A DNA stretch of 64,000 bases, taken from assembly GCA_964538435.1 (NCBI GenBank), contig CAZIDX010000004.1, positions 769 through 64,768 on the forward strand, given 5' to 3'. This DNA is from an uncultured Gammaproteobacteria bacterium. GTDB taxonomy: Bacteria > Patescibacteriota > Patescibacteriia > UBA9934 > GWF2-40-263. The notes below the pieces were generated by a model. That model searched no databases. It was not told where the DNA came from and saw only the letters and a list, made by a program, of their open reading frames with translations. Position numbers and translations under genes: made by a program. Shown one piece after another: positions 8,742 to 55,061 of this stretch (its first letter is position 1; every line of letters begins with the position of its first letter).

Positions 8742-10064
8742 TTATCCTCCTGAGTCAGTACAGTATTTTAAGTAGATTTCAGCGGCTTTTGCTGCATAGT
8801 GAGCGGCTTGTGCTCCAGATCCGTTGTAGGCACACATGGCCATAGCAAGGTCGCCAGTTCGATCAAGTCGTTTTTTTACAAATGTTGCTTGAGCTCTGAG
8901 GGTGTTGCTAATACCTCCCCAGTTTGTTCCACCAGTTGAGAGTTTAGTGTCAAAGTACTCTGCACATGAGTCTAGTGCGACTTGGCAAGTCCAGCATACA
9001 GTGGTGTTACAATCTGGAAATTTTGTTGTGTCAGGCGGCCAGGTTGGGTCATAGGATTCATTGCAGTGCGCAGCAACTTGTTCTCCTCGTGTGTGGTCTC
9101 TGGACACTGTACGCACGCAACATTCTTGTCCAAGGGTTGATTCAAAAGATGTTGGCATGAACTGCGCAATCCCAATTTCCCCACATGGTCCACGCTGCGA
9201 GGAATCGTAGTCAATTGTTCCGCTTGTTTCAATCTGTAGATGAGTTGCAAGCTGGAAACGATCAGCTCCTGTTTCGTCTGCAATAGAGTTAACGACGGCG
9301 GTAAGCTCATCAGTCCAACCAGAAGGTTTTTTTAAAACAGTTGCAGAGCAGGCTTTGACCATCCCTTCGACTCCTTCACAGTTTTCAAGTGAGAATGATG
9401 TAAGCGCATCTTCTGCAATGTTGTCTAACGAGATTGTTCGAAGGCGGACAAGTTCGGGGTTCACTGTCCAAAGAATGAGCCAAGTGCTTGAAAGTAGGAT
9501 AAGGCCAATGACAGCGTTTTTGATGCGCTCCTTTGCTTTTGATGTATCTCCATATCCGCCAGCTGCAGCATACTGAAATCCTCCAATCATGACCATGACG
9601 ATTGCAGCAATGGTGGCTATTCCCAAAATGTACTTATAAGCTCCTGCGATGTAGGCACCCAAGAAGGCGATGTGCAGCACCTTACCATCGACCTCAATGG
9701 CATCTGACAGGTCTATGCCTGGGATTTCAACACTGAGGAGCGGGGTGATGGTTTGTGTGCTGTTGTTAGATACAGCTCCTGTGTTTCCAGGTGCGGTTGA
9801 GTAGCCAGAGTTTGTGCACGTTGTCTTACAATCCATGATGTGGCTTGTGCCATCTGGGCACGAGCAGCCAGCATCAGAGAGAATAGTGGCGCCGCTGTCT
9901 CCGCAGTCTGAAATACATTCGTCCGTTGCATCAACTGAGTGCGCAATATTATCTGAGTCATAACAAGTACAACCTCCAGCAGCAAGAGTGGTCAATGGGA
10001 AAAGGGCACTCAGTGTGAGTGTGGAAAGTGCTAGGAGGATTGAAATTCGTTTTGTTAGTTGCAT
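8742..10064 (-). CDS. Modular exported protein: signal peptide + Cys-rich domain + conserved membrane-hairpin module + lytic transglycosylase (SLT-like) domain
   Basis: Signal peptide; module '...IPGIDLSD...FLGAYIAGAYKYILGIATIAAIVMVMIGGFQYAAAGGYGDTSKAKERIKNAVIGLILLSSTWLILWTVNPELVRL'; SLT-like 'ETSGTIDYDSSQRGPCGEIGIAQFMPTSF'. Confidence 0.6.
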   Translation of the reverse strand: MQLTKRISILLALSTLTLSALFPLTTLAAGGCTCYDSDNIAHSVDATDECISDCGDSGATILSDAGCSCPDGTSHIMDCKTTCTNSGYSTAPGNTGAVSNNSTQTITPLLSVEIPGIDLSDAIEVDGKVLHIAFLGAYIAGAYKYILGIATIAAIVMVMIGGFQYAAAGGYGDTSKAKERIKNAVIGLILLSSTWLILWTVNPELVRLRTISLDNIAEDALTSFSLENCEGVEGMVKACSATVLKKPSGWTDELTAVVNSIADETGADRFQLATHLQIETSGTIDYDSSQRGPCGEIGIAQFMPTSFESTLGQECCVRTVSRDHTRGEQVAAHCNESYDPTWPPDTTKFPDCNTTVCWTCQVALDSCAEYFDTKLSTGGTNWGGISNTLRAQATFVKKRLDRTGDLAMAMCAYNGSGAQAAHYAAKAAEIYLKYCTDSGG

Positions 10065-11044
10065 GATCGAGACATTTTTGGATTTTCAAAATGCCAGGCT
10101 TCTGAGTCGAGCAGGCAAAAGCCCTGTGCTTTCATTGCTGAAATAAGAATGCTGTGCCCTGCATTTTTTCTGCATTTATCTACTGCAGGGTTGTTGTCGC
10201 ATTGTGCTTTTGTTACGCAGGGCGAGCCGCTGCATGTTGCCCACATATCGATAGCACGTCCAGTTGTGTGTGGACAGTTTTCTGCTTTTCCGTCTCGGAG
10301 CATGCAGGCGTAGGTAATCCCATCTTTTGGATCACATGTAGCAGAACCTGGTGGGTTGTTGCAGTATTTGAGAATCAGAGAAGTTTGTTTTTCAACGGTT
10401 CGAAAGCTTGAGGCAATGTAGATGCCATATCCTTGAGCATCTACTTGTGCTGCTGCCGCTTCAATCAAGGGAGCTAAGTCTTTTGGTACTTCATTCACTC
10501 CTGGACCTGTTATGTTTGCTGCAACAGGTGCTTGGAATTCAACTGCTACATTACCACCTGTAATGTTTTCTTCTGATCCAAGGGTTGCAAGGCTGATGTC
10601 GTCTACGACATCCACTTCAACAGGACCAAGGCGAACAAGTTCGGGGTTTACGGTCCAAAGTAGGAGATAGACAGATGCTAAGAGCACAAGACCTGTGATA
10701 GCGTCTTTTATTCTCTTCTTTGCTTTTGATGTTTCTCCATGTCCTCCAGCCAGCGCGTATTGAAGGCCGGCAATCATGATCATGACAATGGCAACAATAA
10801 CAGCTGCGTCAAGCAAGTAATCGTAGATGGCCGAGATGTAATCGGAAAGATAATTTACACTCATGACATTCCCTTTGATGCTGATTTCAGAAAGTTTGAG
10901 TCCGGGGATGTCTACGTTAAGAATAGGGGTCTGGGTTTTGACTGAGCTGGTGGTGGCGTGTGCAACAAGGGGGGAGACGAGAAAGAGTCCAGCGATGAGT
11001 TGGAGGAGGAGGCGTGCTGGTTTTGTGAGGAGAGTTTTTTTCAT
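10055..11044 (-). CDS. Modular exported protein: signal peptide + membrane-hairpin module + peptidase M15 (VanY/LAS-like) domain
   Basis: ORF 10055..11077, start MKKTLLTKP at 11044; shared module '...SDYISAIYDYLL...GLQYALAGGHGETSKAKKRIKDAITGLVLLASVYLLLWTVNPELVRL'; M15 motifs SSFRTVEKQ, HTTGRAIDMW, SEAWHFE. Confidence 0.6.
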   Translation of the reverse strand: MKKTLLTKPARLLLQLIAGLFLVSPLVAHATTSSVKTQTPILNVDIPGLKLSEISIKGNVMSVNYLSDYISAIYDYLLDAAVIVAIVMIMIAGLQYALAGGHGETSKAKKRIKDAITGLVLLASVYLLLWTVNPELVRLGPVEVDVVDDISLATLGSEENITGGNVAVEFQAPVAANITGPGVNEVPKDLAPLIEAAAAQVDAQGYGIYIASSFRTVEKQTSLILKYCNNPPGSATCDPKDGITYACMLRDGKAENCPHTTGRAIDMWATCSGSPCVTKAQCDNNPAVDKCRKNAGHSILISAMKAQGFCLLDSEAWHFENPKMSRSCN

Positions 11045-11045
11045 G

Positions 11046-12413
11046 TTAGTAATCCAGGCAGGCAAGTAGGTGACCACCCTTTGTTTTCCAGCTCATGTGT
11101 ACGTGTGGTCCAGAGGTGTTTCCTGACTGCTCTACAACTTGGCAGTCACAATTTTCAAGTTTGTTTGGGTCTGTGCATGGAGTTCCTTCGACATTGCACC
11201 ATCCGTATTTTGCTGTGGCCCATCCTGCAGGAGCTGTTTGTCCATCACAGCAGCGCCCACCAACATGCCCAATGATGTCTCCTTGTGAAACGGCCTGTCC
11301 AGCAAGAATAGCCCCAGAATCATTTACAAAATCTTTTGCGTGACAAATGGTTATGTAGGCTCCAGCAGCATCACCTGTTCCTTCAAGGTAAATTCGATTT
11401 CCACATTTGTTGTTTGTGTCTTCTTGCTTGGCGTAGGTGACAATACCATCAAAAGGTGCGTACACACTTGAACCCCAACCTGCTCCCCAGTCCAGGTGTC
11501 TGATTTTTTTGTAATCACCGTTTGCTCCGTAGTCAAACCAGTGGTGGTTTCCGCAGGATGGTTGAGCGCCGCCCACGGGGGAAGTAACGCTTTGCGCGAT
11601 TTTGCACTCACCATGATCTTTTGCCTTTGCAACAATAGCATCGCATGTTGGGCGGGGGAGGGATCCGAATTTTGCCCCCTCAAAGCCTCTTGTTGCCATA
11701 TCGAGCTCGAGCTCGTCGACTTCTGTAAGGCGGATGGCGTCAAAAAATGTCGTGTTTGGATTTACGACCCACAAGATAAAGTACACGAAGAAGAGGAGGA
11801 CTAGTCCGATTACAGCGTCTTTTATCCTCTTTTTTGCTTTTCCAGTTTCTCCGTGACCTCCAGCAAAGGCGTATTGCAGACCGCCAATCATGATAATGAC
11901 AATTGAAATGATTGCAGCAATACTCAGAAGATATGTATAGACACCTGTGATGTATTCACCAAGCCAGTTGATTTCCATTTCTTCACCATCTGTGACGATT
12001 CTTGAAAAGTAGACACCTGGAATTTCGACCTCGAGTTCTGGTTCGATGTAGCCTTTTTCTGCATATTCAATATCAGATTTTTTTTGCGTTGTGTAACTAG
12101 CGTTTTCAGCAATGCACACCGCAGTGCAATCAAGTTCAGGCAATTCTCCAGTGGCTGGGCAGTTGCAAATACCCGCGTTTGTTTCCATGGCGTCATCATC
12201 GTTGCAGTCGATGATACATTGGGCCGTACCGCTTACGATTACGAGTTTGTCGCCATCGTAGCATTCACAGGCAAGAGCTTGCGTACAAACAAAAAACACC
12301 CCCATTACTACAGACAGGAATGAAAAAAGACACACGAACTTGAGTCTAAACTTAGTGTTGAGAACGTGTGTCATAACAGGAGAATTATTGAAGGGCAGTG
12401 AGTTGCTCTGCAA
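11046..12413 (-). CDS. Modular exported protein: signal peptide + Cys-rich domain + membrane-hairpin module + peptidase M23 (LytM-like) domain
   Basis: Shared module '...GEYITGVYTYLL...GLQYAFAGGHGETGKAKKRIKDAVIGLVLLFFVYFILWVVNPN'; M23 motifs HLDWGAGWGSSVYAPFDG, ICHAKDF, GDIIGHVGG, SGPHVHMSW; start 12413 or 12374. Confidence 0.6.
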   Translation of the reverse strand: MQSNSLPFNNSPVMTHVLNTKFRLKFVCLFSFLSVVMGVFFVCTQALACECYDGDKLVIVSGTAQCIIDCNDDDAMETNAGICNCPATGELPELDCTAVCIAENASYTTQKKSDIEYAEKGYIEPELEVEIPGVYFSRIVTDGEEMEINWLGEYITGVYTYLLSIAAIISIVIIMIGGLQYAFAGGHGETGKAKKRIKDAVIGLVLLFFVYFILWVVNPNTTFFDAIRLTEVDELELDMATRGFEGAKFGSLPRPTCDAIVAKAKDHGECKIAQSVTSPVGGAQPSCGNHHWFDYGANGDYKKIRHLDWGAGWGSSVYAPFDGIVTYAKQEDTNNKCGNRIYLEGTGDAAGAYITICHAKDFVNDSGAILAGQAVSQGDIIGHVGGRCCDGQTAPAGWATAKYGWCNVEGTPCTDPNKLENCDCQVVEQSGNTSGPHVHMSWKTKGGHLLACLDY

Positions 12414-44252: not shown

Positions 44253-44966
44253 TTATCGCGAAAAGATTTGACTGATGAGCTCTGTTGCGCGCGCGCGAGA
44301 GTCATCAACGGTTCCTCCAGTATCGAGTAGATACACACGTGAACCTTTGTTTTTGAAAATAGAATGAAGCCACTTGGCAGCAAAGCGCTCCTCTTGTTTG
44401 AGCAGGAAGGCAAGTTCTGCGAACACACCTTTTGATTCATCGTCGCGAGCATGGATGCGTCTGTGAGCTTCCTGGGCATCAACTTTTGTGAGAATCAGGA
44501 CGTCTGGTGCGTGGTCGAGTGCGAGCTGGTTTCCAGGTAGGGACATGATGAATTCTTCTGTCATCCCTCCGTGCATGACGGGTTGGTAGACTAGCGAAGA
44601 GGAGATGCCTCTGTCTTGGATGACGATTTTTCCTGCTTTGAGCGCTGGGATAACAAGGCGCTTGTACATGATCTGTCGATCAAGAGCGAATGCGTGCGCG
44701 AGCTCTTCGCCTCCGTATGGATCGTCTGAGCGAGAGAGTTCGTAGCGGATGGCGCGACCTGTCCAGGTTCGGGTGGGTTCGTATGTGAAGAAGACGTCAT
44801 GATCTTGCAGGTCTTCAAATGCGGGTGGTTCGTGGTCGATCCAGTCAGAAAGTTTGAATACGTTGTGACCTTGCTCCTGTGTCCACTCTTGAACAGCATT
44901 AAGGACAGTGGATTTTCCACTTCCTGTCATGCCATCAACCATGATGAATTGACCTGATCGCTTCAT
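44253..44966 (-). CDS. Thymidylate kinase-like dNMP kinase
   Basis: P-loop VDGMTGSGKST; YEPTRTWTGRAIR; DRGISSSLVYQ (Tmk-like DRY/SS motif). Confidence 0.6.
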   Translation of the reverse strand: MKRSGQFIMVDGMTGSGKSTVLNAVQEWTQEQGHNVFKLSDWIDHEPPAFEDLQDHDVFFTYEPTRTWTGRAIRYELSRSDDPYGGEELAHAFALDRQIMYKRLVIPALKAGKIVIQDRGISSSLVYQPVMHGGMTEEFIMSLPGNQLALDHAPDVLILTKVDAQEAHRRIHARDDESKGVFAELAFLLKQEERFAAKWLHSIFKNKGSRVYLLDTGGTVDDSRARATELISQIFSR

Positions 44967-45117
44967 ATTATAGCAAATATTGCGTAATAATCCGATTTAG
45001 GGTGCCCCTTAATTCTCAAAGTGAGATCTATCCACAGGTTGCTCTGCAATGTCGTTATTTTAGCGGAAAGATGAGCCCATGGAAACCAGGTGCTTGGGGT
45101 GGTATTCTTGATCTAGT

Positions 45118-45951
45118 ATGACAAACTTTGATCAAATCTATTTAGACGCCATTGGGCGCATTTATAACGAGGGCGATGAAGTGTTTTCTGAGCGCACAGG
45201 ATACTCAACAAAGGCTATTCCGGGTCTTACGCTTGAGATTGAGCCTGCAAAGGGTTTTCCTCTGCTTACATTGCGCAAAATCCCTGTAAGATTGTTTTGT
45301 GCAGAGGTTGTGTGGATGGTAACTGGGCATAAACATCTTGAGTTCCTGCGTCAGTTTACAAAGGTTTGGGATGGGTTTGCAGAAGAAGATGGAACAGTGG
45401 AGGCAGCGTATGGTCACAGGTGGCGTCACTATTTTGGACGAGATCAGCTTTTGGATCTTGTGGATCATTTGCGCGCGGAGCCATCGTCTCGACATGGGGT
45501 TGTTGTGATGTGGGATCCTGCAACAGATGGGCTCACTGCGCCGAAGAAGAAAAATGTACCGTGTCCGTTTTGTTGGACAGCGAATATTATTCAAAATAAA
45601 TTGAATGTGCATTTGGTGATTCGATCAAATGACATGATGCTTGGAAATCCGCACGATACCGCTGGGTTCGCGCTCCTGCAGGCCATGCTTGCGCAGGAGC
45701 TTGGGGTCAATGTTGGGAAGCTTACGATTTCGATTTCGCATGCACATATTTATGAGAATCACTACTCTCAAGCTGTAGAACTTCTTGATCGAGATGATCA
45801 TTCTCATGACGAGATTTTTTGTAACTTGCCTGAGAATTCGTTTAGGCGAGCCATGGATGCTGATGAGACGCTTGTGAAGGAGATGTTTAAAATGTTTAAA
45901 AATCAGTATGAGCCTGCGCCTCCAGTGGAGCGCATGCAGATTGCGTATTAG
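45118..45951 (+). CDS. Thymidylate-synthase-family (ThyA-like) folate-dependent pyrimidine-C5 transferase with Asn->Asp specificity substitution (predicted dCMP- rather than dUMP-directed)
   Basis: Collinear with E. coli ThyA: ERTG (Arg21), PSSRHGVVVMWD, catalytic Cys in NVPCPF, IRSND, HAHIY; E. coli LGLPFN(177) aligns to LGNPHD. Confidence 0.75.
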   Translation: MTNFDQIYLDAIGRIYNEGDEVFSERTGYSTKAIPGLTLEIEPAKGFPLLTLRKIPVRLFCAEVVWMVTGHKHLEFLRQFTKVWDGFAEEDGTVEAAYGHRWRHYFGRDQLLDLVDHLRAEPSSRHGVVVMWDPATDGLTAPKKKNVPCPFCWTANIIQNKLNVHLVIRSNDMMLGNPHDTAGFALLQAMLAQELGVNVGKLTISISHAHIYENHYSQAVELLDRDDHSHDEIFCNLPENSFRRAMDADETLVKEMFKMFKNQYEPAPPVERMQIAY

Positions 45952-45953
45952 AT

Positions 45954-46454
45954 ATGGACGTTATACTTATTGCAGCGGTTTCGGCTGATGGAAAGATTGC
46001 TCAGTCCTCTGATCAGCTTTCTCTTGATTGGACAAGCAAAGAGGATTTGCGGTTTTTTGTTGAAAAAACTAAGGAAATTGGTGTGGTGATCATGGGGCGA
46101 AAGACCTTTGATACGATTGGAAAGCCGCTTAAAGACAGGCAGCTCATAGTGATGACACGCTCACCAGAGGAGCAGGAGACAATGGAAGGGGTGGAGTTTA
46201 CAAGCGAGACACCGCATGAGATTTTGGAGCGATTGGAGGGGCTTGGGCTAAAGAGTGTTGTGCTGGCTGGTGGGTCATCGATTTACAGCAAGTTTTTGTA
46301 TGACAATCTTGTGACAGATGTTTATCTGACGATTGAACCAATCTTGTTTGGTCAGGGTGTGCCACTTGCCTTTGGATTTGATCGAATTGATATGGAGCTT
46401 GAGGATGTGAGCGAGCTGGGGGAGAATGGAATTCTTGCGCATTACACGTTGTAG
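45954..46454 (+). CDS. folA: Dihydrofolate reductase
   Basis: VILIAAVSADGKIA...VVIMGRKTFDTIGKPLKDRQLIVMTRS matches DHFR fold motifs; translationally coupled to thyA-like gene. Confidence 0.7.
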   Translation: MDVILIAAVSADGKIAQSSDQLSLDWTSKEDLRFFVEKTKEIGVVIMGRKTFDTIGKPLKDRQLIVMTRSPEEQETMEGVEFTSETPHEILERLEGLGLKSVVLAGGSSIYSKFLYDNLVTDVYLTIEPILFGQGVPLAFGFDRIDMELEDVSELGENGILAHYTL

Positions 46455-46500: not shown

Positions 46501-49500
46501 TTATTCTTCAGATGGTGGTGGGGCAAGGTCTTTTGGTAGCTCATAGCCCCCAAAGACGCGTTGGACCATTCCTTCTGCAATATCTGTGTTGAAACGGACG
46601 CGCTCGGCAAGTTTTGCATACTCTGGAGTGTTCTGGAGTCCTTCCTCTGCCATGTTCTCGAGTACGCCCCGCTGCTCAAGGGCATAGACCATTTGACGCA
46701 TAACGCGTTCTCCCTGCGTGTTCCAATCGTTGTCGTAGCCTTTGTCTCGGAAGGCTTCGTAGAGCTGGTCCTTTGGCACACCGAACTCGTTTGCAGCATC
46801 TGTCATTTCTGATTTGTTTGCGAAGAAGCCGATGATGCGTGCGGCTGTAACTTCACCTTCATCGTTATAACGGAAACGGATTTTGTTTTCATCTCCCACA
46901 AACTTTTTAAGAGCTTCGGATGATCCTCCCTGTGGTGATTCAGGGGTTGGTGGTGCTTCAACTGGTGGGGGAGGAGTTGGTTGCGGACCTGCTTTTAGGT
47001 TTTGTTGCAGAGTGTCAGGTTTTTCTGGAGCTCCTGCGCTCGCTGTTGAATTCATGTTTTCAGATAGGTTTGCCGATGCTACCACAATGTCGGCGTCAGC
47101 CATGGCTTGCTGCACAATTGGATTTCCTGCGTCAAGGTATCTTCCGTATTCTGCAAGTTCTTGTGCGATTTGTTGTTTGAGAGCCAGAGCTTCACCAGAG
47201 CCACCTTCTCCAACACCCTCTAGCGCACGTAGGGCCTTTTGCATGACAAAGATCTTTGTTGCGCTGTCTTGGATTTGACTTGAGCTTTCAAGAACACTTG
47301 CTTCTGTAGCTTCTTCCCATCCTTCAACAAGAAGACCTTGAGCACTTTCCACAACAGAAGGTTGTGGGTTTTCTAGTAGCGCTTGGAAGTTTTCAATGTG
47401 TGGTCGTCCTGATGCGTCCAGTGTGAAAGAAACTTCACCAACTCCTTCAACGTTTAAGGATTCGATTGGTGGGATTGCATCAGCTTCAGGGTCGAAGTGA
47501 ACAATTTTATCGTAGTGTGTGAAGAATCCTTTGAGTTCTTGGATTGTTTCGCTTTGCTCATCAATGATTCCAAATTGTTTTAACGCATAATAGTGCATTT
47601 CTGCAGTTGAGATTGTTTCCATTGCTTCGGCAGTTTCTAGCAGGTTGTTTTCTTGCAGTGTTTCCAGTAATTGGTGATATCCAGCGAGGTACTCGGCATT
47701 GTGCTGGAAGATTTCAGTGTACTGTCCTGCTAATTCTTGGTGCATTTCAAGCAAGTGCTGAGTTCCTCCATACATTGCTTCGACTTGAGCAAGTTCCTCT
47801 GCAGAGAGTTCGACGTTATCAAGAGCAAGTCCTTCGACAATATCGGTTGAGTCAGATGCGTATTCAAAGTTGATTGAAGATCCGTCTTCTAGGTCGACTG
47901 TTCCGACACCGGTCCCACCTGGGGCTTCGCGTGGGATTTGGGCGATAAGCTGTTCGGTTGGGTTTGGTGGGTTGCCGTGTTCGTAGATAAATCCTTCAGC
48001 GCGAAGTTCGTCCATGCTGAGTACATCTGGTGTATCGGAGCTGATATCAACAAAACCGATATCAAGACCACCTTCGGTTGCGGTTGCAACTACGGATAGA
48101 TTTCCAATGGCTTCTGTGGCTAATCGGGTGTCACCTCCAGTGCGGACAAGTCCTTCTGCACGTGCTGCTGTGAGAGCTTGCTGGTTTGCCCAAGCGTCCA
48201 CATCACCCTCGCCTGAGAATCCAAAACCTTCTGGGTTCGCTTTGAGTTGGGAGGTGATGAGTCCGATGATGCTGTTGTGCTCGGAATCTGCTGCAACGGT
48301 TCCCATTTGGAGTTTTTCAAGATTAAGGCTTGAGCCTTCTGCCGCGTCTGGAGCAACTGTTGCTTCTGTGTTTGTCTCAGGGGAGGCAGGGGTTGCTTCT
48401 TTTGTAATCGCAGCTTCAGTTTCGGGTGCTGGCTCTGCTTCGGTTGGTGCCCCTGTTTCTGTTGCTGCTTCTGCACTGTCTGTGATTTCAGCTTCAGAGT
48501 CGCTTGAGAACAGATCGTTAAACCGCGTGAAGTTTTCAGCTAGGTTGCTCTTGATGGCTTCTGTTGCTCCAAGTTCTTGGAATTTGTCTATTGATTCAGA
48601 AAGGGAGCTTAAAACACCTTCATCCATTGCTTCGGCTCCAGCCAGGAATCCAAGACCAGTGGCTGTGGCAATGGTTCCGAGGGCCTGTGCTCGGTTCATT
48701 GTGCGCTTCAACCCTGTGTCAGCGTTGTCTCCGTATTTGAGTTTTTCGTAGGTCTCTTGAGCGCCGAATACGAACATTTCATTGAAGTAGCTATCTGTTC
48801 GTTTTCCTTCTTCCATTTCAGCAGTGACCTTTTTATGCCTTTCGTAATATTTGAAACCAGCAAGAACACCCACTCGAGCGATGTTGAGGCCAGACATTGC
48901 TAGCATCGAGTTTATGGTTTGCTTGAGAACCTCTGTGTTCTTGATGCGATTATCAATGGCTGTCTGCAGCGCTTCGTCCATTTCTGCGCGCATATTTTCA
49001 CCAGCATCATCGACTTTCTCCCCATAGGTTTCAATAATTTCGTCCAGCTTGGCTTTCATTTCAGCTTTTTTTTCTGGTGTAAGGTGCTTTGATGATTCAA
49101 TCGCTTGAGCAAGAGCGGCTTTTTTCTGTTCAACAGGATTTGGTTTTTCGCCATCCTCTTCAATAACTTCTTGCGCTTTTTCTATTGCATCGAGGATTCG
49201 ATTACGTTCTTTTTTGGTGAAGATTTTTTGAGAAATATATTTTGGGACGTCAACAAAGCCTTTGAGACCGAAAATATGCAAAGGCACAGCCATACCAACC
49301 CCTCCCACAGATAAAACAGCGTCTGTCACTGTTTCTTCAGCGGTTTCTTTTTCTTCCTGTTTTACTTCACCTGTTGCTTCTCTTCGGATGCGTTTTCCAA
49401 TCGCTCGTGCAACGTTCATGAGCTTGTCTCGTGTGCTGGCAGGTGTTTCTTCTGATGGTTCTTCTGCTGGTTGCTCGCCTTCAGGCGAAGGTTCACCCTC

Positions 49501-49617
49501 AGGCGCTGGTTCTGCTTCAGGTTCTGGAGCAGGTTCAGGTTGGTCTTTTTTGGGTTCGGTTGGCGGATCTTGGGCATTCAATTGATCCATGATGTCGTTT
49601 GCTAGTGGATCACTCAT
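46501..49617 (-). CDS. Hypothetical large (1038 aa) acidic low-complexity protein
   Basis: PE/EA-rich N-terminus, one hydrophobic segment, long acidic helical regions. Confidence 0.5.
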   Translation of the reverse strand: MSDPLANDIMDQLNAQDPPTEPKKDQPEPAPEPEAEPAPEGEPSPEGEQPAEEPSEETPASTRDKLMNVARAIGKRIRREATGEVKQEEKETAEETVTDAVLSVGGVGMAVPLHIFGLKGFVDVPKYISQKIFTKKERNRILDAIEKAQEVIEEDGEKPNPVEQKKAALAQAIESSKHLTPEKKAEMKAKLDEIIETYGEKVDDAGENMRAEMDEALQTAIDNRIKNTEVLKQTINSMLAMSGLNIARVGVLAGFKYYERHKKVTAEMEEGKRTDSYFNEMFVFGAQETYEKLKYGDNADTGLKRTMNRAQALGTIATATGLGFLAGAEAMDEGVLSSLSESIDKFQELGATEAIKSNLAENFTRFNDLFSSDSEAEITDSAEAATETGAPTEAEPAPETEAAITKEATPASPETNTEATVAPDAAEGSSLNLEKLQMGTVAADSEHNSIIGLITSQLKANPEGFGFSGEGDVDAWANQQALTAARAEGLVRTGGDTRLATEAIGNLSVVATATEGGLDIGFVDISSDTPDVLSMDELRAEGFIYEHGNPPNPTEQLIAQIPREAPGGTGVGTVDLEDGSSINFEYASDSTDIVEGLALDNVELSAEELAQVEAMYGGTQHLLEMHQELAGQYTEIFQHNAEYLAGYHQLLETLQENNLLETAEAMETISTAEMHYYALKQFGIIDEQSETIQELKGFFTHYDKIVHFDPEADAIPPIESLNVEGVGEVSFTLDASGRPHIENFQALLENPQPSVVESAQGLLVEGWEEATEASVLESSSQIQDSATKIFVMQKALRALEGVGEGGSGEALALKQQIAQELAEYGRYLDAGNPIVQQAMADADIVVASANLSENMNSTASAGAPEKPDTLQQNLKAGPQPTPPPPVEAPPTPESPQGGSSEALKKFVGDENKIRFRYNDEGEVTAARIIGFFANKSEMTDAANEFGVPKDQLYEAFRDKGYDNDWNTQGERVMRQMVYALEQRGVLENMAEEGLQNTPEYAKLAERVRFNTDIAEGMVQRVFGGYELPKDLAPPPSEE

Positions 49618-49934
49618 AGAGTTTCGATAAATTCACGAACTTTATTGATTTGTTCGTTTCTTGTGATTTGATCTGCAAGTTGCAGAGATTGTTTTTGCAT
49701 ATCATGTGCAGCTTCTTTTTCTTGAGCTTCAACTTTTTTTGCAATGTCATCAAAACGTTCAAGAAGTGCAGCAACAATAGCTTGGTCAGCTTCATGCCAA
49801 GCAGCAACAAGTTCACCAAGGTCTTTCTCCAGCTTTGGGTCGTCACTGAGAGAGAGGAGATCAATAATCATGAGTTTTGTCTCACGGTCCAATGAGCCGT
49901 GTTGCAGGGCATCCAGGAGCTTTTGTCTGTTCAT
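49614..49934 (-). CDS. Small acidic coiled-coil protein
   Basis: ORF overlapping start of 46501..49617 by 4 bp (operon). Confidence 0.4.
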   Translation of the reverse strand: MNRQKLLDALQHGSLDRETKLMIIDLLSLSDDPKLEKDLGELVAAWHEADQAIVAALLERFDDIAKKVEAQEKEAAHDMQKQSLQLADQITRNEQINKVREFIETL

Positions 49935-49937
49935 AGA

Positions 49938-50336
49938 TTAGCTCTCCTCAGCTTTTTTAAGGATGTTTTCAATTTCTTCCATTTCAGAAAGAGCCTGCTT
50001 TTCAATCTCTTTGCGTTGTTCTTGGTACTTTGTTTTGACACGTTCGAGTGTTTCAACAAATTCCTGTGTTTCAATTTGAGTTGCGTCAGCAATGTTTGCC
50101 TCGAGCATGGTAGCGAGCTTGTCTATGAGTTCTGGGGTCATGTCAGGCAGAAGTGCCATGTAGGCATCTTTTACGTCGTCTGGGAGCGATGAGGCAGCCA
50201 TGAGCCAGGCTAGGCGTTCACCTAGTTGTTTTGCCTCCTTTTCAATTTCTTGCTCATTGTTTGTTTGGTCTGTCATACGAAAATATGCTAACTTTGATTC
50301 ACGATATTCATAGTATAGCGTATTTATGCCAGACAT
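49938..50336 (-). CDS. Small acidic coiled-coil protein
   Basis: ORF; first gene of the three-gene minus operon. Confidence 0.4.
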   Translation of the reverse strand: MSGINTLYYEYRESKLAYFRMTDQTNNEQEIEKEAKQLGERLAWLMAASSLPDDVKDAYMALLPDMTPELIDKLATMLEANIADATQIETQEFVETLERVKTKYQEQRKEIEKQALSEMEEIENILKKAEES

Positions 50337-51237
50337 TCAGTATCCATATTTACCAGAGGGTAAGACTATTAAGTACACCAGTGCTGACGATCCTTTCATG
50401 ATCGAGGCATCTAAGGTTCGAGATGGTCAAGCGGGTGATACGTTTTTTCCTGTGGGGAGTGTTCTTGTGAAAGATGGGGAGGTTATTGGTCGAGGAGGGA
50501 ATGGGTTTAACAAGGGGCCAGGGCAGCTTCATATTTGTCCTCGGATTGTTATGGATTGTAAGAGTGGAGAAGGGTATGATTTGTGCACGTTTCATGATTC
50601 TCCTGGGCACAGTGAAGCTATGGCTGTGCAGGATGCAATTCATAACGGGAAGGATCCTAGTGGAGCAGATATTTATATGCATGGGCATTGGTGGGCATGT
50701 GAGCCGTGTTGGACGCAGTTTTTGGAAGCTGGAGGGAATGATATTTATGTGCTTGATGATGCGCACGAGCAGTTTACAAAAGAAAAGATGTATGAGAAGG
50801 CCATGACTACGAGTTTGAAGAGTGCTTATGTTGCAGGAGGAATTACGAACATTGAAGATTTTGATGCCAAGGCAAAGTTTTATGAAGAGATTGGAGGTGT
50901 GTGTGATGAGCTTGGGATTGTTTCAAGGATTCCGCATCGAGATAATGCACTCAATGAAGATCGAGATAAGGGGAATTCGCGTGGGGTGTATGATTGGGCG
51001 ACAAAAGAGGCTCAAGACAATTGTGTAACGATTGCTGAGGTGAGTGATCCTTCGCTTGGGACCGGGGGAGAGATTGTGCATGCTGAGCTCTCGGGAAAGC
51101 CGGTTGTGTTGTATTCAAAGAAAGGGGCGAAGGTGTCAAGGTATGTGCTTGGGAATCCGGCGGTTGTGTATCATGTTGAGTATGAGGATTTAGACGATGC
51201 TAAGCGGCAACTTCGGAATGTGCTTCGGTTGATGTAA
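50326..51237 (+). CDS. Fusion protein: dCMP/CMP deaminase zinc-binding domain + DNPH1/Rcl-like 2'-deoxynucleoside-5'-phosphate N-hydrolase (nucleoside deoxyribosyltransferase fold)
   Basis: HSEAMAV (H-x-E) and ACEPCW (C-x-x-C) deaminase motifs; C-terminal AYVAGGI ... DPSLGTGGEIVHAELSGKPVVLY resembles DNPH1 'PSLGVGYELG'. Confidence 0.7.
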   Translation: MPDIQYPYLPEGKTIKYTSADDPFMIEASKVRDGQAGDTFFPVGSVLVKDGEVIGRGGNGFNKGPGQLHICPRIVMDCKSGEGYDLCTFHDSPGHSEAMAVQDAIHNGKDPSGADIYMHGHWWACEPCWTQFLEAGGNDIYVLDDAHEQFTKEKMYEKAMTTSLKSAYVAGGITNIEDFDAKAKFYEEIGGVCDELGIVSRIPHRDNALNEDRDKGNSRGVYDWATKEAQDNCVTIAEVSDPSLGTGGEIVHAELSGKPVVLYSKKGAKVSRYVLGNPAVVYHVEYEDLDDAKRQLRNVLRLM

Positions 51238-51592: not shown

Positions 51593-51668
51593 TGGGGCCG
51601 GCTGCGGGACTCGAACCCGGAATCTGCTGATTACAAATCAGCTGCTCTACCAATTGAGCTAAGCCGGC
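51593..51668 (-). tRNA. tRNA-Thr (anticodon UGU)
   Basis: RC gives GCCGGCT acceptor, D-arm GCTCAATTGGTAGAGC, anticodon stem GCTGA/TCAGC loop TTTGTAA, T-arm CCGGGTTCGAGTCCCGG, CCA; hairpin+U-run downstream on minus. Confidence 0.85.
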
Positions 51669-51683
51669 TGAGTCGTCTTGAGG

Positions 51684-53198
51684 CTACCTCACATCCTTCA
51701 TGATGGGGGTGAAGTAGACAGCCACGACCCGGGGGGTCAGGTAGTGCCCGTCGACTCGGTACAGGACCAGGTCACCCTCGGAGGGGAAGTACCGGTGGTG
51801 TCCGCGCGCCTGCACCATCTTGAGGTGGCCGTGATGGACCAGCATCTGGGTGCCGCCCTTGGGGTGGCGACCTTGCTCGATCGTGCCGTACCAGTAGCCA
51901 GCTTGGTCGAGCCGGTACTCGAGGCTGTCCTCGAGCTGGGGGTGGCTCAGGCCCAAGCGCCTCCAGGCGATGAATGCCGTGGAGATGGTGTTTTCCGTGA
52001 GGGTCGGGGCGACCACTTCGCGGAAGAAGGCTTCACCTTCGCCCTCCAGATCTACCACGAGGCGGAGCAGGAATGAGAACGTGTGCCGTGTCGCGTAGTG
52101 AGGAGTGTGGGCCAGGTCCAGGCGCTTGGCCAGGGCCTTGCGAGTTCTTGCGTCCAGGCGCTTGAGCTCATCCTCGGGGATGCGGTCGAGGCTCTCGAGT
52201 CCCAGGATGGCCTGGGCGATGTGGGCGTCCACGGCCGCGCTGGGCAGTCGACGCTCCATCTGGACCCGTGCACCCATGAGCTTGTTCGGTGCCTTGGATC
52301 CGCAGATGGCCAGGGCGATGGACAGCTCCTGGTTGGTGAGCATGTCCCAGGGCTTGAAGTCGCCGAAGCAGTAGTGCCACTTCTCGGTCTCGGTGTACTT
52401 GCGCAGGTTCATGGTGAACGGCTCGTTCTGATGCGTGTAGCCGTCACCAGCCTTGAGCGAGGTCAGGCATGCGAGTACTTCCTGGTGGATCAGGTCGAAC
52501 CCGTGGGTGGGATCGGACAGGATGCGGTTGTAGAGGTCGCTTCCGCGGCTGACTGCGATTCCGAGGGAGTGCAGGGTGCTGCGGATGGGGGCGCTGTGGC
52601 GGTCGCCGATGCCGTACTCGATGAAGTCGTGCACATCGTTGGCCATGCCATGCCGAACCTGGGTGCGGCGCAGGCGCTCGATGATGGCCTGGGCGATCAC
52701 CTGACGGGTGACACCAGCCATGATGGCAGCATTGATCCAGCCGTTGTTCCACGAGCCGAAGCGCGGGTACAGCTCGTGGATGAACCGCTCGCGCCACTGG
52801 GGCGAGAGCAGGGTCAGGAGCTCTGCGGACTGGATGAAGCCCTGGAAGAACCAGTGCGGTAGGGACAGGAGCGGGGACTCGAAGTCCGTCTGCGCGGCCT
52901 TCTGCTCGCATGCGGTGTCGTACGCGTGCAGTGCGGCCTGCATGAACAGGTCTGCGTCCCCCACGATTTCGGTGAACTTGGTCGGGTTGGCCATGATCCA
53001 GGGCATGCCTGCAGACTGCGGGATCACTTCGTATCCACAGTCATCGACCAGGAGTGCGAAGCTGAGCATGTCCTCGGGCTTGGCCGTGCCGTCTTCGATC
53101 TTCGCCAGGATGGCGTCACGGGCTGCGTTCAGGCGGTCGTAGGACTCGCCGCGGCCACTGATCCACTGGTGGGTCACGTTCTGGGTCTCGATCTGCAT
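51684..53198 (-). CDS. Hypothetical protein (504 aa from RBS-supported start), first gene of GC-rich island
   Basis: ORF 51684..53276; ATG at 53198 preceded by GGAGGA; ~60% GC by eye. Confidence 0.5.
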   Translation of the reverse strand: MQIETQNVTHQWISGRGESYDRLNAARDAILAKIEDGTAKPEDMLSFALLVDDCGYEVIPQSAGMPWIMANPTKFTEIVGDADLFMQAALHAYDTACEQKAAQTDFESPLLSLPHWFFQGFIQSAELLTLLSPQWRERFIHELYPRFGSWNNGWINAAIMAGVTRQVIAQAIIERLRRTQVRHGMANDVHDFIEYGIGDRHSAPIRSTLHSLGIAVSRGSDLYNRILSDPTHGFDLIHQEVLACLTSLKAGDGYTHQNEPFTMNLRKYTETEKWHYCFGDFKPWDMLTNQELSIALAICGSKAPNKLMGARVQMERRLPSAAVDAHIAQAILGLESLDRIPEDELKRLDARTRKALAKRLDLAHTPHYATRHTFSFLLRLVVDLEGEGEAFFREVVAPTLTENTISTAFIAWRRLGLSHPQLEDSLEYRLDQAGYWYGTIEQGRHPKGGTQMLVHHGHLKMVQARGHHRYFPSEGDLVLYRVDGHYLTPRVVAVYFTPIMKDVR

Positions 53199-53330
53199 TT
53201 GTCTTCCTCCGATCGGGTGTCTTTCTTTGACATTGCCGAGTGAGGTCTTTCTGGGAACCGCCCAGAACGGAGCCAAAAGGCTTGTAGGAATGAAAGGAGC
53301 ATGCGCACATTTGTTGTGCGCGAACGGAGA

Positions 53331-53359
53331 AATATATCATAAAATAGGTGTTTTGTCAA
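53331..53359 (-). promoter_or_regulatory. Minus-strand promoter TTGACAAAA-N17-TATATT
   Basis: Reverse complement of 53331-53359. Confidence 0.45.
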
Positions 53360-53452
53360 TCCATTTAGACAAAAAGTAGGTCTATAATAGTCATTTTTGT
53401 AAAAGTGACTCAAAACTCTCACCATGGTGAGGTTTTTGAAACCTTTGAAATT

Positions 53453-53477
53453 GAAAAGATCCGCTTTGTTGCGGATC
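53453..53477 (-). terminator. Terminator (gatccgc-tttgtt-gcggatc; U-run on minus) overlapping stop of CDS 53477..54322
   Basis: 7-bp stem; A-run 53454-53457 on plus. Confidence 0.45.
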
Positions 53478-54322
53478 TAGAGGCTCAGGCCGGGTTTGGT
53501 TGAGCATTCGTAGAGAAAGCCTTCGTAGGCCTGGTTGACGAGTTGTATCCAGCCGCCATCGCGGGGGATGCGGCTGAGGTCTGGCATTGGATTTGTTTTT
53601 ACACGTCGAGGGCGTACGTGGGTGTGTGCGACGATTTGGAGTCGGAGTTTGTCCGGTCTTTGAGGGTCGCGATCCATGATGCGAGCTGTGATCAGCAGAA
53701 GTCTCATCTCAACGCCGATGACCGCACCTTCTGGTCCGTAGACTTCGGTGGCGGCGTAGATTGCTCCGTGTGCGGCTTTGGTTGAGTAGAGTCGCTTGCT
53801 TGGAGCGAAGTTGCCATGCTCGTCCTGGTTGATGATTGCGATCGGGTCCAGGGGACTGGTGTTTCGTTTGCACCAGACCGCGTAGCAGTCGCGCAGACCG
53901 TTGTTGAACGAGTCTGGGAGTTGTAGCTCGCGTTCGTCTGTGGTGCGGTGTCGCCTGTTGTACTGCCGGCGTCCGCTGCTCAGGATCGAGACAAGATAGG
54001 CTTTTGCACGCTCTCGCTCGGCTTTCTCACAAATGTGATGCCAAGCGAGTCTGTCTGCTGAGCGCATGGAAGCAATGCCATGCTGGAGCAGGTTCGTGCT
54101 TGTAGAGTTTTTCCACTGGCCCGGGATCGTGACATAGTGCCGGTCACGTCCCATTTTAGGTTGAATCAGCTCAGCCGAGGGGGTCTTGGTTGTCTGACAC
54201 AGTTCAAGATGTTTGCGTGCAGCAGCTTCGGAGTCGAATCCGAGTGCGGGTGTGATCAGGGACGTTGTGTCCTGTGTGCTCATCAGTCCAGGAAAAGGCG
54301 CAGTCATTGCATCCTCGTACAT
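53477..54322 (-). CDS. Hypothetical protein (281 aa), GC-rich island
   Basis: ORF; own promoter and terminator. Confidence 0.5.
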   Translation of the reverse strand: MYEDAMTAPFPGLMSTQDTTSLITPALGFDSEAAARKHLELCQTTKTPSAELIQPKMGRDRHYVTIPGQWKNSTSTNLLQHGIASMRSADRLAWHHICEKAERERAKAYLVSILSSGRRQYNRRHRTTDERELQLPDSFNNGLRDCYAVWCKRNTSPLDPIAIINQDEHGNFAPSKRLYSTKAAHGAIYAATEVYGPEGAVIGVEMRLLLITARIMDRDPQRPDKLRLQIVAHTHVRPRRVKTNPMPDLSRIPRDGGWIQLVNQAYEGFLYECSTKPGLSL

Positions 54323-54404: not shown

Positions 54405-55061
54405 TTAGATTTTGAACTGATCTTTAAGATCGGTTAGTTTTCCGCTGATGAGCAGCTCGCGCTCGTCGTCTTTGTCTAGTTTGAACGACGGAGAGCCTGA
54501 GTCTGTGTATTTGGCTGCGCTCATGCCGTGAAGGTTGGCCTCTTCTGGAGTGAGGGATTCGTTCAGCTCTTGGAAGATTACCTGGCAGACGCGCTCGCCT
54601 GGATAGATACGGATGACTTGATCGCCTGCTTCGTTTTTCATTGGGAAGATCAGGTGTCCTTTGTAGCCTGTGTCAATGATTCCTGAGAGTGAAAGGTTGA
54701 TTCCGCGGCGGTTTGTGCTGGTGCGAGGAAAGAGGATGGCCATGAGGTTCATGGCGTTGATCTCGATGCGCTCAAGGCTGGTTGCGATTACGAACTCGTT
54801 AGGGAGAAGGTCAAAGTATTGGCCAGGTTGGAGTTGGACTTCGTCGAATTGTTCGCGGTGTGCGTCAACATCGTCGATGGCTACGTTGATAGCTCGTCGT
54901 CCTTTTTCATCCACTGTCCAGTTGCGGGGGATGAGGAACTTGTAGCCGAGGCGTAGGTCAAGGGCGTGTGGTTGGATTTGAAACTTGTCGAGTTCTGGCT
55001 CAAAGACAAGGTCTTTGTCCTCGATGGATTTGATGATTTGTGATCGTGTAAGTATTCCCAT
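54405..55061 (-). CDS. dCTP deaminase / dUTPase-superfamily protein (Dcd-like) with C-terminal extension
   Basis: N-terminal ILTRSQIIKSIEDKDLVFEP...IQPHALDLRLG; RTSTNRRG; SGIIDTGYKGHLIFPMKN...PGERVCQVIF; the Dcd catalytic Glu position appears to be Pro (alignment by eye). Confidence 0.65.
   Translation of the reverse strand: MGILTRSQIIKSIEDKDLVFEPELDKFQIQPHALDLRLGYKFLIPRNWTVDEKGRRAINVAIDDVDAHREQFDEVQLQPGQYFDLLPNEFVIATSLERIEINAMNLMAILFPRTSTNRRGINLSLSGIIDTGYKGHLIFPMKNEAGDQVIRIYPGERVCQVIFQELNESLTPEEANLHGMSAAKYTDSGSPSFKLDKDDERELLISGKLTDLKDQFKI

Follow-up and report, generated by a model that had tools for sequence, protein, structure and literature searches.

A predicted dCMP-methylating member of the thymidylate synthase family in a conserved chromosomal gene cluster of the Candidate Phyla Radiation

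We describe a gene of the thymidylate synthase (TS) family at positions 45118-45951 of a 64,000-nucleotide stretch of DNA (assembly GCA_964538435.1, contig CAZIDX010000004.1, positions 769 to 64,768), which we refer to as the window; its product is called here the window enzyme. The protein has an aspartate where E. coli ThyA has Asn177, it belongs with the dCMP methyltransferase of phage Xp12 (also written XP-12) to an Asp-type clade, its gene is linked to those for dihydrofolate reductase (DHFR), a zinc deaminase, a dCTP-deaminase-like (Dcd-like) protein and dTMP kinase (Tmk), and it is widely conserved in the Candidate Phyla Radiation (CPR). From its residues the enzyme probably methylates dCMP, and the reading that we prefer, to which we give a probability of roughly 0.5, is that dCMP is methylated to 5-methyl-dCMP (5mdCMP) and then deaminated to dTMP as a housekeeping route to thymidylate.

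45118-45951, + strand: TS-fold enzyme of the Asp-type clade, predicted dCMP C5-methyltransferase (Pfam PF00303, alignments, AlphaFold2 model)

The open reading frame (ORF) runs from an ATG start to a TAG stop, encodes 277 amino acids and has a GC content of 0.47, about the same as the window mean (0.47-0.48). The original prediction described the product as collinear with thymidylate synthase, and every motif that it quoted is found in place: SERTG at residue 24, SSRHG at 123, VPCPF at 147, IRSND at 168, GNPHD at 176 and HAHIY at 208, with the catalytic Cys149 of VPCPF encoded by nucleotides 45562-45564 and Asp180 of GNPHD by 45655-45657. Residues 7-236 match Pfam PF00303 Thymidylat_synt (E=7e-53), and an AlphaFold2 model (pLDDT 96.7, pTM 0.94) superposes over its full length on E. 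coli TS (TM 0.83-0.88), so that the sequence, with its Cys in the 'PC' motif, and the fold both place it in the TS superfamily. Its TIGR03284 thymidylate synthase score is 132.6 (cut-off 108.35), and it lies under the cut-off in all of the PRK01827 equivalog submodels (for example 151.4 vs 327). The C-terminus is a hydrophobic tail ending ..MQIAY (..QIAY), where TS has ..PVAI and Parcubacteria relatives have ..KIVL or ..KIAL. In common with the canonical ThyA-FolA pair (EC 2.1.1.45, 1.5.1.3), to which identity is 30-35%, there are the fold, the catalytic Cys, the folate- and phosphate-binding residues, the C-terminal tail and the dihydrofolate production that a DHFR implies; the differences are Asp for N177, Pro for H147, Phe for W83 and His or Gln for R127, and a predicted substrate of dCMP.

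The Asp at the N177 position is genuine and no artefact of alignment. In HMMER pairwise alignments to solved TS chains, RSNDMMLGNPHDTAGFALL is paired with RSADVFLGVPFNIASYALL, the aligned stretches around Asp180 reading 'rsndmmlgnphdtagfall' in the window enzyme and 'rsadvflgvpfniasyall' in the solved TS. A MAFFT alignment that also includes Mallos puts Asp180, Asp179 of T4 gp42, the Asp of Xp12 and Asn177 of E. coli ThyA in one column, which is bracketed by the invariant R166, S167, D169, G173 and P175 on one side and H207 and Y209 on the other (E. coli numbering); with these residues flanking it the placement is unambiguous. The original prediction had asserted Asp here and named a careful multiple alignment giving Asn as what would overturn it, and HMMER, MAFFT and the fold all give Asp.

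From an alignment of 270 homologues plus reference sequences we took the residues at 16 active-site positions (E. coli numbering). At these the window enzyme has R21, E58, W80, F83, Y94, R126, H127, C146, P147, I165, R166, S167, D169, D177, H207 and Y209 (REWFYRHCPIRSDDHY; the corresponding string in Xp12 is REWFYRRCPLRSDDHY). Positions 83, 147 and 177 are F/P/D in the window enzyme, Xp12 and Mallos, and W/H/N in E. coli; in its own numbering the window enzyme thus has Phe87 for W83, Pro150 for H147 and Asp180 for N177. The Asn177 of a canonical ThyA is therefore replaced, as are its His147 and Trp83, and all three residues that mark the Xp12-type dCMP methyltransferase (Asp177, Pro147 and Phe83) are present. 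Apart from positions 83, 127, 147 and 177 the catalytic residues are all canonical, with E63, W84, Y98, R26, R125, R169, S170, D172, H210 and Y212 (own numbering) conserved.

A TS in which this Asn is changed to Asp (N229D in L. casei, N177D in E. coli) becomes a dCMP methylase, and in T4 dCMP hydroxymethylase Asp179 plays the reciprocal role. The window enzyme has the same specificity switch as these engineered enzymes and its model superposes on them (PDB 1NJC), but unlike the point mutants it has co-varying changes at 83, 127 and 147. Among natural enzymes, T4 dCMP hydroxymethylase, MilA and BcmA carry Asp, and TS and dUMP hydroxymethylase carry Asn (PMC5175136); positions 177 and 147 are also the best two positions for separating TS homologues of cytosine-modified from those of unmodified metagenomic phage contigs (PMC8670742). 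In a 2024 preprint, expression in E. coli together with T4 gp1 gave detectable 5-methyldeoxycytidine (5mdC) with the Xp12 TS homologue and with five out of seven metagenomic Asp177 homologues (bioRxiv 10.1101/2024.12.05.627091). The dCMP-directed C5 transfer put forward in the original prediction is supported by the H147P and W83F changes that co-vary with Asp177, by the Xp12-like character of the best phage matches, and by the 5mdC obtained with Xp12 and those five homologues.

The closest homologues of the window enzyme are 65-90% identical and come from metagenome-assembled genomes (MAGs) of Candidatus Uhrbacteria or Patescibacteria, and its best phage matches are the Xp12-like phages. The best 150 representatives from a library of 1.8 billion proteins include 125 with Asp and 21 with Asn at position 177, the latter (19 W/H/N, one W/C/N and one F/H/N) appearing only below E ~1e-36. 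A neighbour-joining tree, built without support values and with Xp12 as the one included enzyme among those assayed for 5mdC, has two main clades, one largely W/H/N and the other Asp-type (mostly F/P/D, in general F-x-D). Within the Asp-type clade all CPR proteins fall into a single subclade and Xp12 and Mallos into another; a few W/H/D and W/P/D sequences are nested inside the canonical, largely W/H/N clade. We note that the representative library also contains natural fusions of Asp-type TS with a dCMP deaminase (P0137), a PRA-PH/MazG-like pyrophosphohydrolase (P0191) and an HNH endonuclease (P0140).

When one genome for each GTDB species was scanned with a close-family alignment, 80 loci emerged, with identities of 63-80% in Uhrbacteria and 50-56% in Gracilibacteria, Peribacteria, Altimarinota, Daviesbacteria and Kaiserbacteria; two of the Altimarinota carriers are complete chromosomes of about 1.3 Mb each. 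The scan used narrow peptide patterns, and its 92 matches are not readable as a prevalence in CPR; alignments built from more diverse Asp-type sequences contained no stretch conserved enough for such a scan. F83/P147/D177 is present in all 85 copies from scan loci and relatives' loci and in 117 of 120 Parcubacteria/Paceibacterota clusters retrieved with one of these copies as query, all 120 of which have D177; with a further 120 Uhrbacteria clusters, Asp177 occurs in 325/325 of the CPR homologues checked, whose carriers include Uhrbacteria, Parcubacteria, Gracilibacteria, Peribacteria, Altimarinota and Daviesbacteria. Given this constancy, together with synteny with rplK-rplA-nusG-secE-gyrB, we read the gene as a vertically kept core gene. 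The enzyme had been predicted to be unusual for a cellular genome; the cellular setting holds, but the trait is conserved across many CPR classes and is no peculiarity of one genome. Databases name these homologues thymidylate synthase throughout. As a separate matter, some 'binchicken' MAG record titles ('uncultured Gammaproteobacteria', 'Candidatus Saccharibacteria'; L017, L021, L025, L028 and others, L082, L085) contradict the gene content or homologue names (Uhrbacteria, Parcubacteria), and these taxon labels look unreliable and were left unused.

The genes discussed below lie around the TS gene as follows.

44253-44966, - strand: dTMP kinase (Tmk), divergent from the TS gene (TIGR00041 89.8 bits, cut-off 83.25)
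44967-45117, no strand: divergent intergenic region of 151 bp between tmk and the TS gene, presumed promoters
45954-46454, + strand: DHFR, folA (Pfam PF00186 DHFR_1, E=1.4e-19)
within 46501-50336, - strand: 1038-amino-acid acidic low-complexity protein with a Pro/Glu/Ala-rich N-terminus and no Pfam family, an insertion between folA and the deaminase gene
49614-49934 and 49938-50336, - strand: two small ORFs of this insertion, between folA and the deaminase gene
50326-51237, + strand: zinc (d)CMP-deaminase-family domain fused to an Rcl/DNPH1-like (nucleoside-deoxyribosyltransferase-fold) domain (PF00383 E=6.4e-8; PF05014 E=0.0026, weak)
54405-55061, - strand: dCTP-deaminase-family (DCD) protein of 218 amino acids (PF22769 E=3.5e-27; TIGR02274 95.5, cut-off 92.8)

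The DHFR gene starts 2 nucleotides past the TS stop codon (junction TAGATATG), which together with its PF00186 match bears out the coupling originally proposed; in the gene calls of relatives it lies directly downstream or overlaps by 4 bp. Where the flanks are long enough, all 25 Uhrbacteria-like loci have it at most 6 kb from the TS gene; among the other CPR loci at least 12 of 22 do. A hydroxymethylase frees tetrahydrofolate (THF) and has no special requirement for a DHFR. This coupling, the TS-like hydrophobic C-terminal tail and the retention of E58, W80, Y94 and D169 (cofactor activation, proton abstraction) lead us to favour reductive methyl transfer, as in ThyA, over hydroxymethyl transfer; the original prediction had argued the same from the DHFR, and the tail adds to it. 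The features of an Xp12-type transfer that would yield dihydrofolate, a linked DHFR and a C-terminal closing tail, are both present.

T4 gp42 is like the window enzyme in its Asp (D179) and catalytic Cys and uses dCMP, but it ends about 40 residues earlier and is without the C-terminal tail, has Thr at 147 and Val at 83, and makes a hydroxymethyl product and THF with no DHFR requirement; of the traits of a gp42-type enzyme the window enzyme thus has the Asp at the specificity position, and lacks the truncated C-terminus and the independence of DHFR. It is very improbable, in our view, that the window enzyme is a dCMP hydroxymethylase of this type, making 5-hydroxymethyl-dCMP for DNA modification or as a metabolite: the Asp is common to both and the Asp-type clade may include hydroxymethylases, but identity to gp42 is 21%, no glycosyl-, carbamoyl- or other transferase is linked, a tight conserved coupling to DHFR would be pointless for a reaction that releases THF, and deamination of the product would give 5-hydroxymethyl-dUMP, which has no evident use. 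We rejected this candidate on the DHFR coupling, the retained tail and the low identity. MilA and BcmA, from Streptomyces nucleoside antibiotic pathways, are likewise cellular TS homologues with Asp, but they use ribonucleotides, have Ala at S167 (Ala176 in MilA) and Lys for one Arg of the phosphate pair (PMC5175136), and serve secondary metabolism and not a core gene context. Neither of these replacements is found in the window enzyme, which keeps Ser170 and Arg125, with His at its position 126; the retention of Ser167, His207 and Tyr209 points to a deoxyribonucleotide as substrate, and away from CMP as in MilA.

The window is cellular chromosome of Candidatus Uhrbacteria-like type, from an ultra-small bacterium of the CPR/Patescibacteria. 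It encodes DnaE, GyrB, RecG, RadA, PheS/T, ThrS, TyrS, GatB, MiaA/MiaB-type enzymes, ClpB, L1, NusG and FtsW, with four aminoacyl-tRNA synthetases in all, and two tRNAs. The gene order in Uhrbacteria is fixed: tmk (-), often with a 143-amino-acid dut (-); divergently from these TS (+), folA (+) and the deaminase gene (+); sometimes a Nudix gene; the Dcd-like gene; and then rplA, rplK, nusG, secE and gyrB. In other CPR classes the order is shuffled, with the TS gene, folA, the Dcd-like gene and often the deaminase gene remaining together, and on the Altimarinota chromosomes TS, folA and the Dcd-like gene form a tight three-gene operon. The window differs from the usual Uhrbacteria order in having no dut at that spot and in the insertion between folA and the deaminase gene, which is shared by a 90% identical relative (L004); the two genes adjoin in most relatives.

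With this context we consider it scarcely credible that the cluster is a prophage or an island acquired horizontally from an XP-12-like virus and standing outside the cell's own metabolism. The nearest functionally characterised relatives are phage enzymes, and the TS-deaminase-DHFR trio is found also in Xp12 and Mallos; however, phage structural and replication genes are absent around the cluster, the synteny of tmk, TS-folA-deaminase and rplA-rplK-nusG-secE-gyrB is constant over dozens of Uhrbacteria species, homologues from the different CPR classes, 50-90% identical, make up one monophyletic family, and the GC content of the gene is close to the window mean. On these same grounds (no phage genes nearby, constant synteny, monophyly, matching GC) it was rejected. 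The likeness to Xp12 is nonetheless close, for the phage enzyme shares the TS fold, F83/P147/D177 and about 37% identity, is extended at its C-terminus by a stretch that lines up with the tail region of TS and ends ..PEVIE, and is encoded with a zinc deaminase and a DHFR nearby. The window enzyme departs from it in being cellular, vertically conserved across a bacterial radiation, encoded beside ribosomal-protein genes and placed in a separate subclade, and its module has the extra conserved partners Tmk and a Dcd-like protein with a Glu to Pro change, as well as, in Uhrbacteria, a deaminase fused to an Rcl-like domain. By tblastn the CPR deaminase has no detectable similarity to the Xp12 deaminase.

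The deaminase fusion was part of the original prediction, and the PF00383 match and the weaker one to PF05014 agree with it. Its motifs are HSE at residue 95 and CEPC at 125 (the HxE and CxxC zinc motifs) and PSLGTGGE at 242, and its only PDB matches are a TadA (E=0.002) and, for the C-terminal half, Rcl/DNPH1 (2klh, E=0.008), including 'PSLGxGxE'. A cytidine/dCMP-deaminase-family gene in cis is what an Xp12-type system has; here it lies 3.9 kb downstream of the TS gene, adjoins the DHFR gene in most relatives, and is linked to TS in 25/25 Uhrbacteria-like loci and at least 9 of 22 other CPR loci. The Rcl-like fusion (residues ~175-303) occurs in Uhrbacteria only, with the deaminase domain alone in other CPR classes; we speculate that this half, whose namesakes are 2'-deoxynucleoside 5'-phosphate N-hydrolases, might clear dUMP or other unwanted dNMPs. 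We predict that 50326-51237 encodes a 5-methyl-dCMP (or 5-methyl-dCTP) deaminase. DCTD-family enzymes generally accept 5mdCMP (PMC12088426), and cis-encoded DCTD-family deaminases turn 5mdCTP into dTTP (10.1101/2024.12.05.627091).

The divergent adjacency of a Tmk-like kinase also stands as first described, with the correction that it is ordinary-looking: in an alignment with S. aureus TMK, both the Phe and the Arg that contact thymine ('AFALDR') are retained, as is the 'DR..SSL.YQ' block, and the protein has the look of a genuine dTMP kinase and not of a 5mdCMP kinase. It is linked to the TS gene in 20 of the 25 Uhrbacteria-like loci. An ordinary Tmk would mildly favour deamination at the monophosphate level and argue against bulk synthesis of 5mdCTP.

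The original list of partners was correct as far as it went but incomplete, as it missed the conserved Dcd-like protein at 54405-55061. This protein just passes TIGR02274, but in place of the catalytic Glu of a Dcd (in 'VLEF' or 'TLEL'; E138 of E. coli Dcd, in 'IVLEF') it has Pro140 ('LIFPMKN'), and all 54 TS-linked copies, from every CPR class sampled, have Pro for Glu138. With the catalytic Glu replaced it seems unlikely that the protein deaminates dCTP. It also lacks motif V (GGFGSTG) of the trimeric dUTPases, a motif that is present in the separate 143-amino-acid Dut of relatives; we regard it as a candidate dCTP or dUTP pyrophosphatase that would feed or sanitise the pathway. A homologue search with it returned only close Uhrbacteria copies automatically named 'dCTP deaminase' and no functional lead.

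The active-site signature, taken with these partners, suggests the following route. Cys149 of the window enzyme would attack C6 of dCMP, not dUMP, with Asp180 accepting hydrogen bonds from the cytosine N4-amino group and N3; the methylene group of 5,10-methylene-THF would be transferred and reduced by the cofactor hydride, giving 5mdCMP and dihydrofolate, from which the co-transcribed DHFR would restore THF. The linked zinc deaminase would convert a 5-methylcytosine nucleotide to a thymine nucleotide, most simply 5mdCMP to dTMP, and the adjacent dTMP kinase would make dTDP. The net chemistry would be that of the canonical dCMP to dUMP to dTMP series with two steps swapped, dUMP being bypassed, and the Glu-less Dcd-like protein may provide dCMP from dCTP or clear dUTP. 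Substrate, product, order of steps, the part of the Dcd-like protein and the use of this as the sole thymidylate route are what we infer here. If the enzyme does methylate dCMP, its main job would likely be dTMP supply, as every cell needs dTMP and the cluster is a vertically inherited core cluster. A further but weak point is that 1.18 Mb of CPR flanks, the DNA to which this search was confined, contained neither thyX (sought by motif and with a T. maritima sequence as tblastn query) nor a second thyA. The original prediction had offered two readings, 5-methyl- or 5-hydroxymethyl-dCMP made possibly for DNA hypermodification, and dCMP methylated and then deaminated to dTMP; the second, which has a documented precedent in XP-12, is the one we prefer, and the two are not separable in silico.

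Several observations weigh against this route. The genes present (Dut in many relatives, the Dcd-like protein, dCMP deaminase, TS, DHFR and Tmk) match the requirements of the canonical dUMP route exactly, and as both routes use the same genes and have the same net chemistry, context cannot order the steps; the active-site signature, which points to dCMP, carries the step order in its entirety. In many Uhrbacteria the interval from tmk to the TS gene encodes a bona fide 143-amino-acid dUTPase that has motif V (for example L006 9498-9929 and L007 9446-9877). This dUTPase makes dUMP, for which the model leaves no consumer; the window and its closest relatives have no dut at that spot, and searches of the full 64 kb with the Dut of relatives and of E. 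coli as queries detect none. The CPR deaminase is very divergent, may act at the mono- or the triphosphate level, and has a putative preference for 5-methylcytosine (5mC). Finally, two of the seven natural Asp177 homologues gave no 5mdC (10.1101/2024.12.05.627091).

One alternative is that the window enzyme is an ordinary dUMP-dependent TS in which Asp180, perhaps protonated and with Pro147 and Phe83 compensating, still binds uracil, and that the cluster is the canonical pathway, with dUTPase or dCMP deaminase supplying dUMP, TS making dTMP, DHFR restoring the folate and Tmk phosphorylating dTMP. Every canonical component is in the cluster, relatives even having a bona fide dut alongside; the TIGR03284 cut-off is passed and the databases name all of these proteins thymidylate synthase; the catalytic residues outside 83, 127, 147 and 177 are canonical; and the W/H/D and W/P/D sequences in the canonical clade mean that Asp is not limited to one clade. 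We nevertheless think this unlikely, since Asp versus Asn has set the preference for cytosine or uracil in every tested case (mutants in both directions, and natural enzymes), F/P/D is common to Xp12 and the CPR family (85/85 copies, 117/120 clusters), the PRK01827 equivalog cut-offs are missed by far (151 vs 327), and the Dcd-like protein is without the Glu for converting dCTP to dUTP, which weakens a canonical supply of dUMP.

A further possibility is a cell in an XP-12-like state, 5mdCMP being phosphorylated and incorporated so that 5mC replaces much or all of the chromosomal cytosine, with the deaminase diverting part of the pool (possibly 5mdCTP) to dTTP and the Dcd-like protein acting as a dCTPase that excludes dCTP. 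The studied phages with an Asp177 TS and a deaminase in cis do have cytosine-modified DNA, and in Xp12 and PaMx74 5mC fully replaces cytosine; the Glu-less Dcd-like protein could act as phage dCTPases do (T4 gp56; PRA-PH/MazG fusions such as P0191). Such an arrangement is, however, without precedent in cellular life, and the sole linked kinase looks thymine-specific, with its O4-reading Arg kept. T4 gp1 was needed for 5mdCMP to enter the E. coli dNTP pool (10.1101/2024.12.05.627091), and no T4 gp1-type dNMP kinase is seen among the scanned window ORFs or the Pfam calls of four relatives' loci, no targeted search having been made; the extreme GC skew of the window, a possible side effect, is not common to all carriers, and literature searches turned up no account of unusual DNA in CPR. 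We judge this arrangement decidedly unlikely, and we judge 5mC-substituted DNA like that of Xp12 to be unlikely in the carriers. Its general form, in which many CPR/Patescibacteria chromosomes would have 5mC largely or fully in place of cytosine, with the TS homologue making 5mdCMP, the Dcd-like protein purging dCTP and the deaminase drawing dTTP, we likewise hold to be decidedly unlikely. Bulk 5mC in a cellular genome does become concretely and cheaply checkable through this enzyme.

Thymidylate synthesis is viewed as universal in that either ThyA or ThyX methylates dUMP. The kind of enzyme described here and the logic of methylating before deaminating are already known from phage XP-12 and related viruses, and the route has until now been known from such viruses only. 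Formation of thymidylate by deamination of a 5-methylcytosine nucleotide in XP-12 has been on record since 1982, as 'a new thymidylate biosynthesis' (Kuo, Chow and Lin 1982; also Feng, Tu and Kuo 1978; Wang and Ehrlich 1982), and the XP-12 deaminase makes dTTP from 5mdCTP (PMC12088426; 10.1101/2024.12.05.627091). In the open-access literature that we searched there is no report of an Asp-type TS, of dCMP methylation or of bulk 5mC in CPR/Patescibacteria, and papers on CPR treat the gene as ordinary thyA. The conserved chromosomal module across CPR classes, the Dcd-like companion with its Glu to Pro change and the deaminase-Rcl fusion of Uhrbacteria thus appear to be unreported.

If the preferred route is correct, it would be a third and cellular solution for a core step in the making of DNA precursors, with dUMP bypassed, and CPR metabolic reconstructions that annotate ThyA and Dcd would be wrong at two steps. 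ThyA has served as a marker in CPR phylogeny (PMC10221324); in these lineages the marker would be a different enzyme from canonical ThyA, with a bearing on such use. There would also be a cellular counterpart to the phage 5mC pathway, and with it the question of which of the two is older, and antifolates or inhibitors of the 5-fluorouracil type may act differently on CPR organisms. Were the chromosomes themselves to contain 5mC in place of cytosine, a CPR carrier would be the first cellular organism with wholesale base substitution.

Three other features of the window are recorded here. Over the whole of it (1-64000) the GC skew at 4-fold sites is +0.46 on the + strand for genes of either strand (overall +0.17, with T > A), which is a very strong asymmetry of the replication type; we considered the skew as a footprint of 5mC deamination tied to the TS homologue and rejected this, carriers ranging from ~0 to 0.5. 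Secondly, a GC-rich block at 51593-54322 (GC 0.59 vs the window mean of 0.47-0.48) may be a foreign insertion at a tRNA; the tRNA and the ORFs of the block are as follows.

51593-51668: tRNA-Thr, adjoining the GC-rich block
51684-53276, - strand: ORF of 530 amino acids in the block, no Pfam or NCBIfam match
53477-54322, - strand: ORF of 281 amino acids in the block, no Pfam or NCBIfam match

Lastly, 8742-12413 (- strand) encodes three consecutive proteins with type IV secretion system (T4SS) pilin-like domains, two of them fused to cell-wall hydrolase domains (VanY and peptidase M23), and these adjoin RadA and a DsbA-like thioredoxin.

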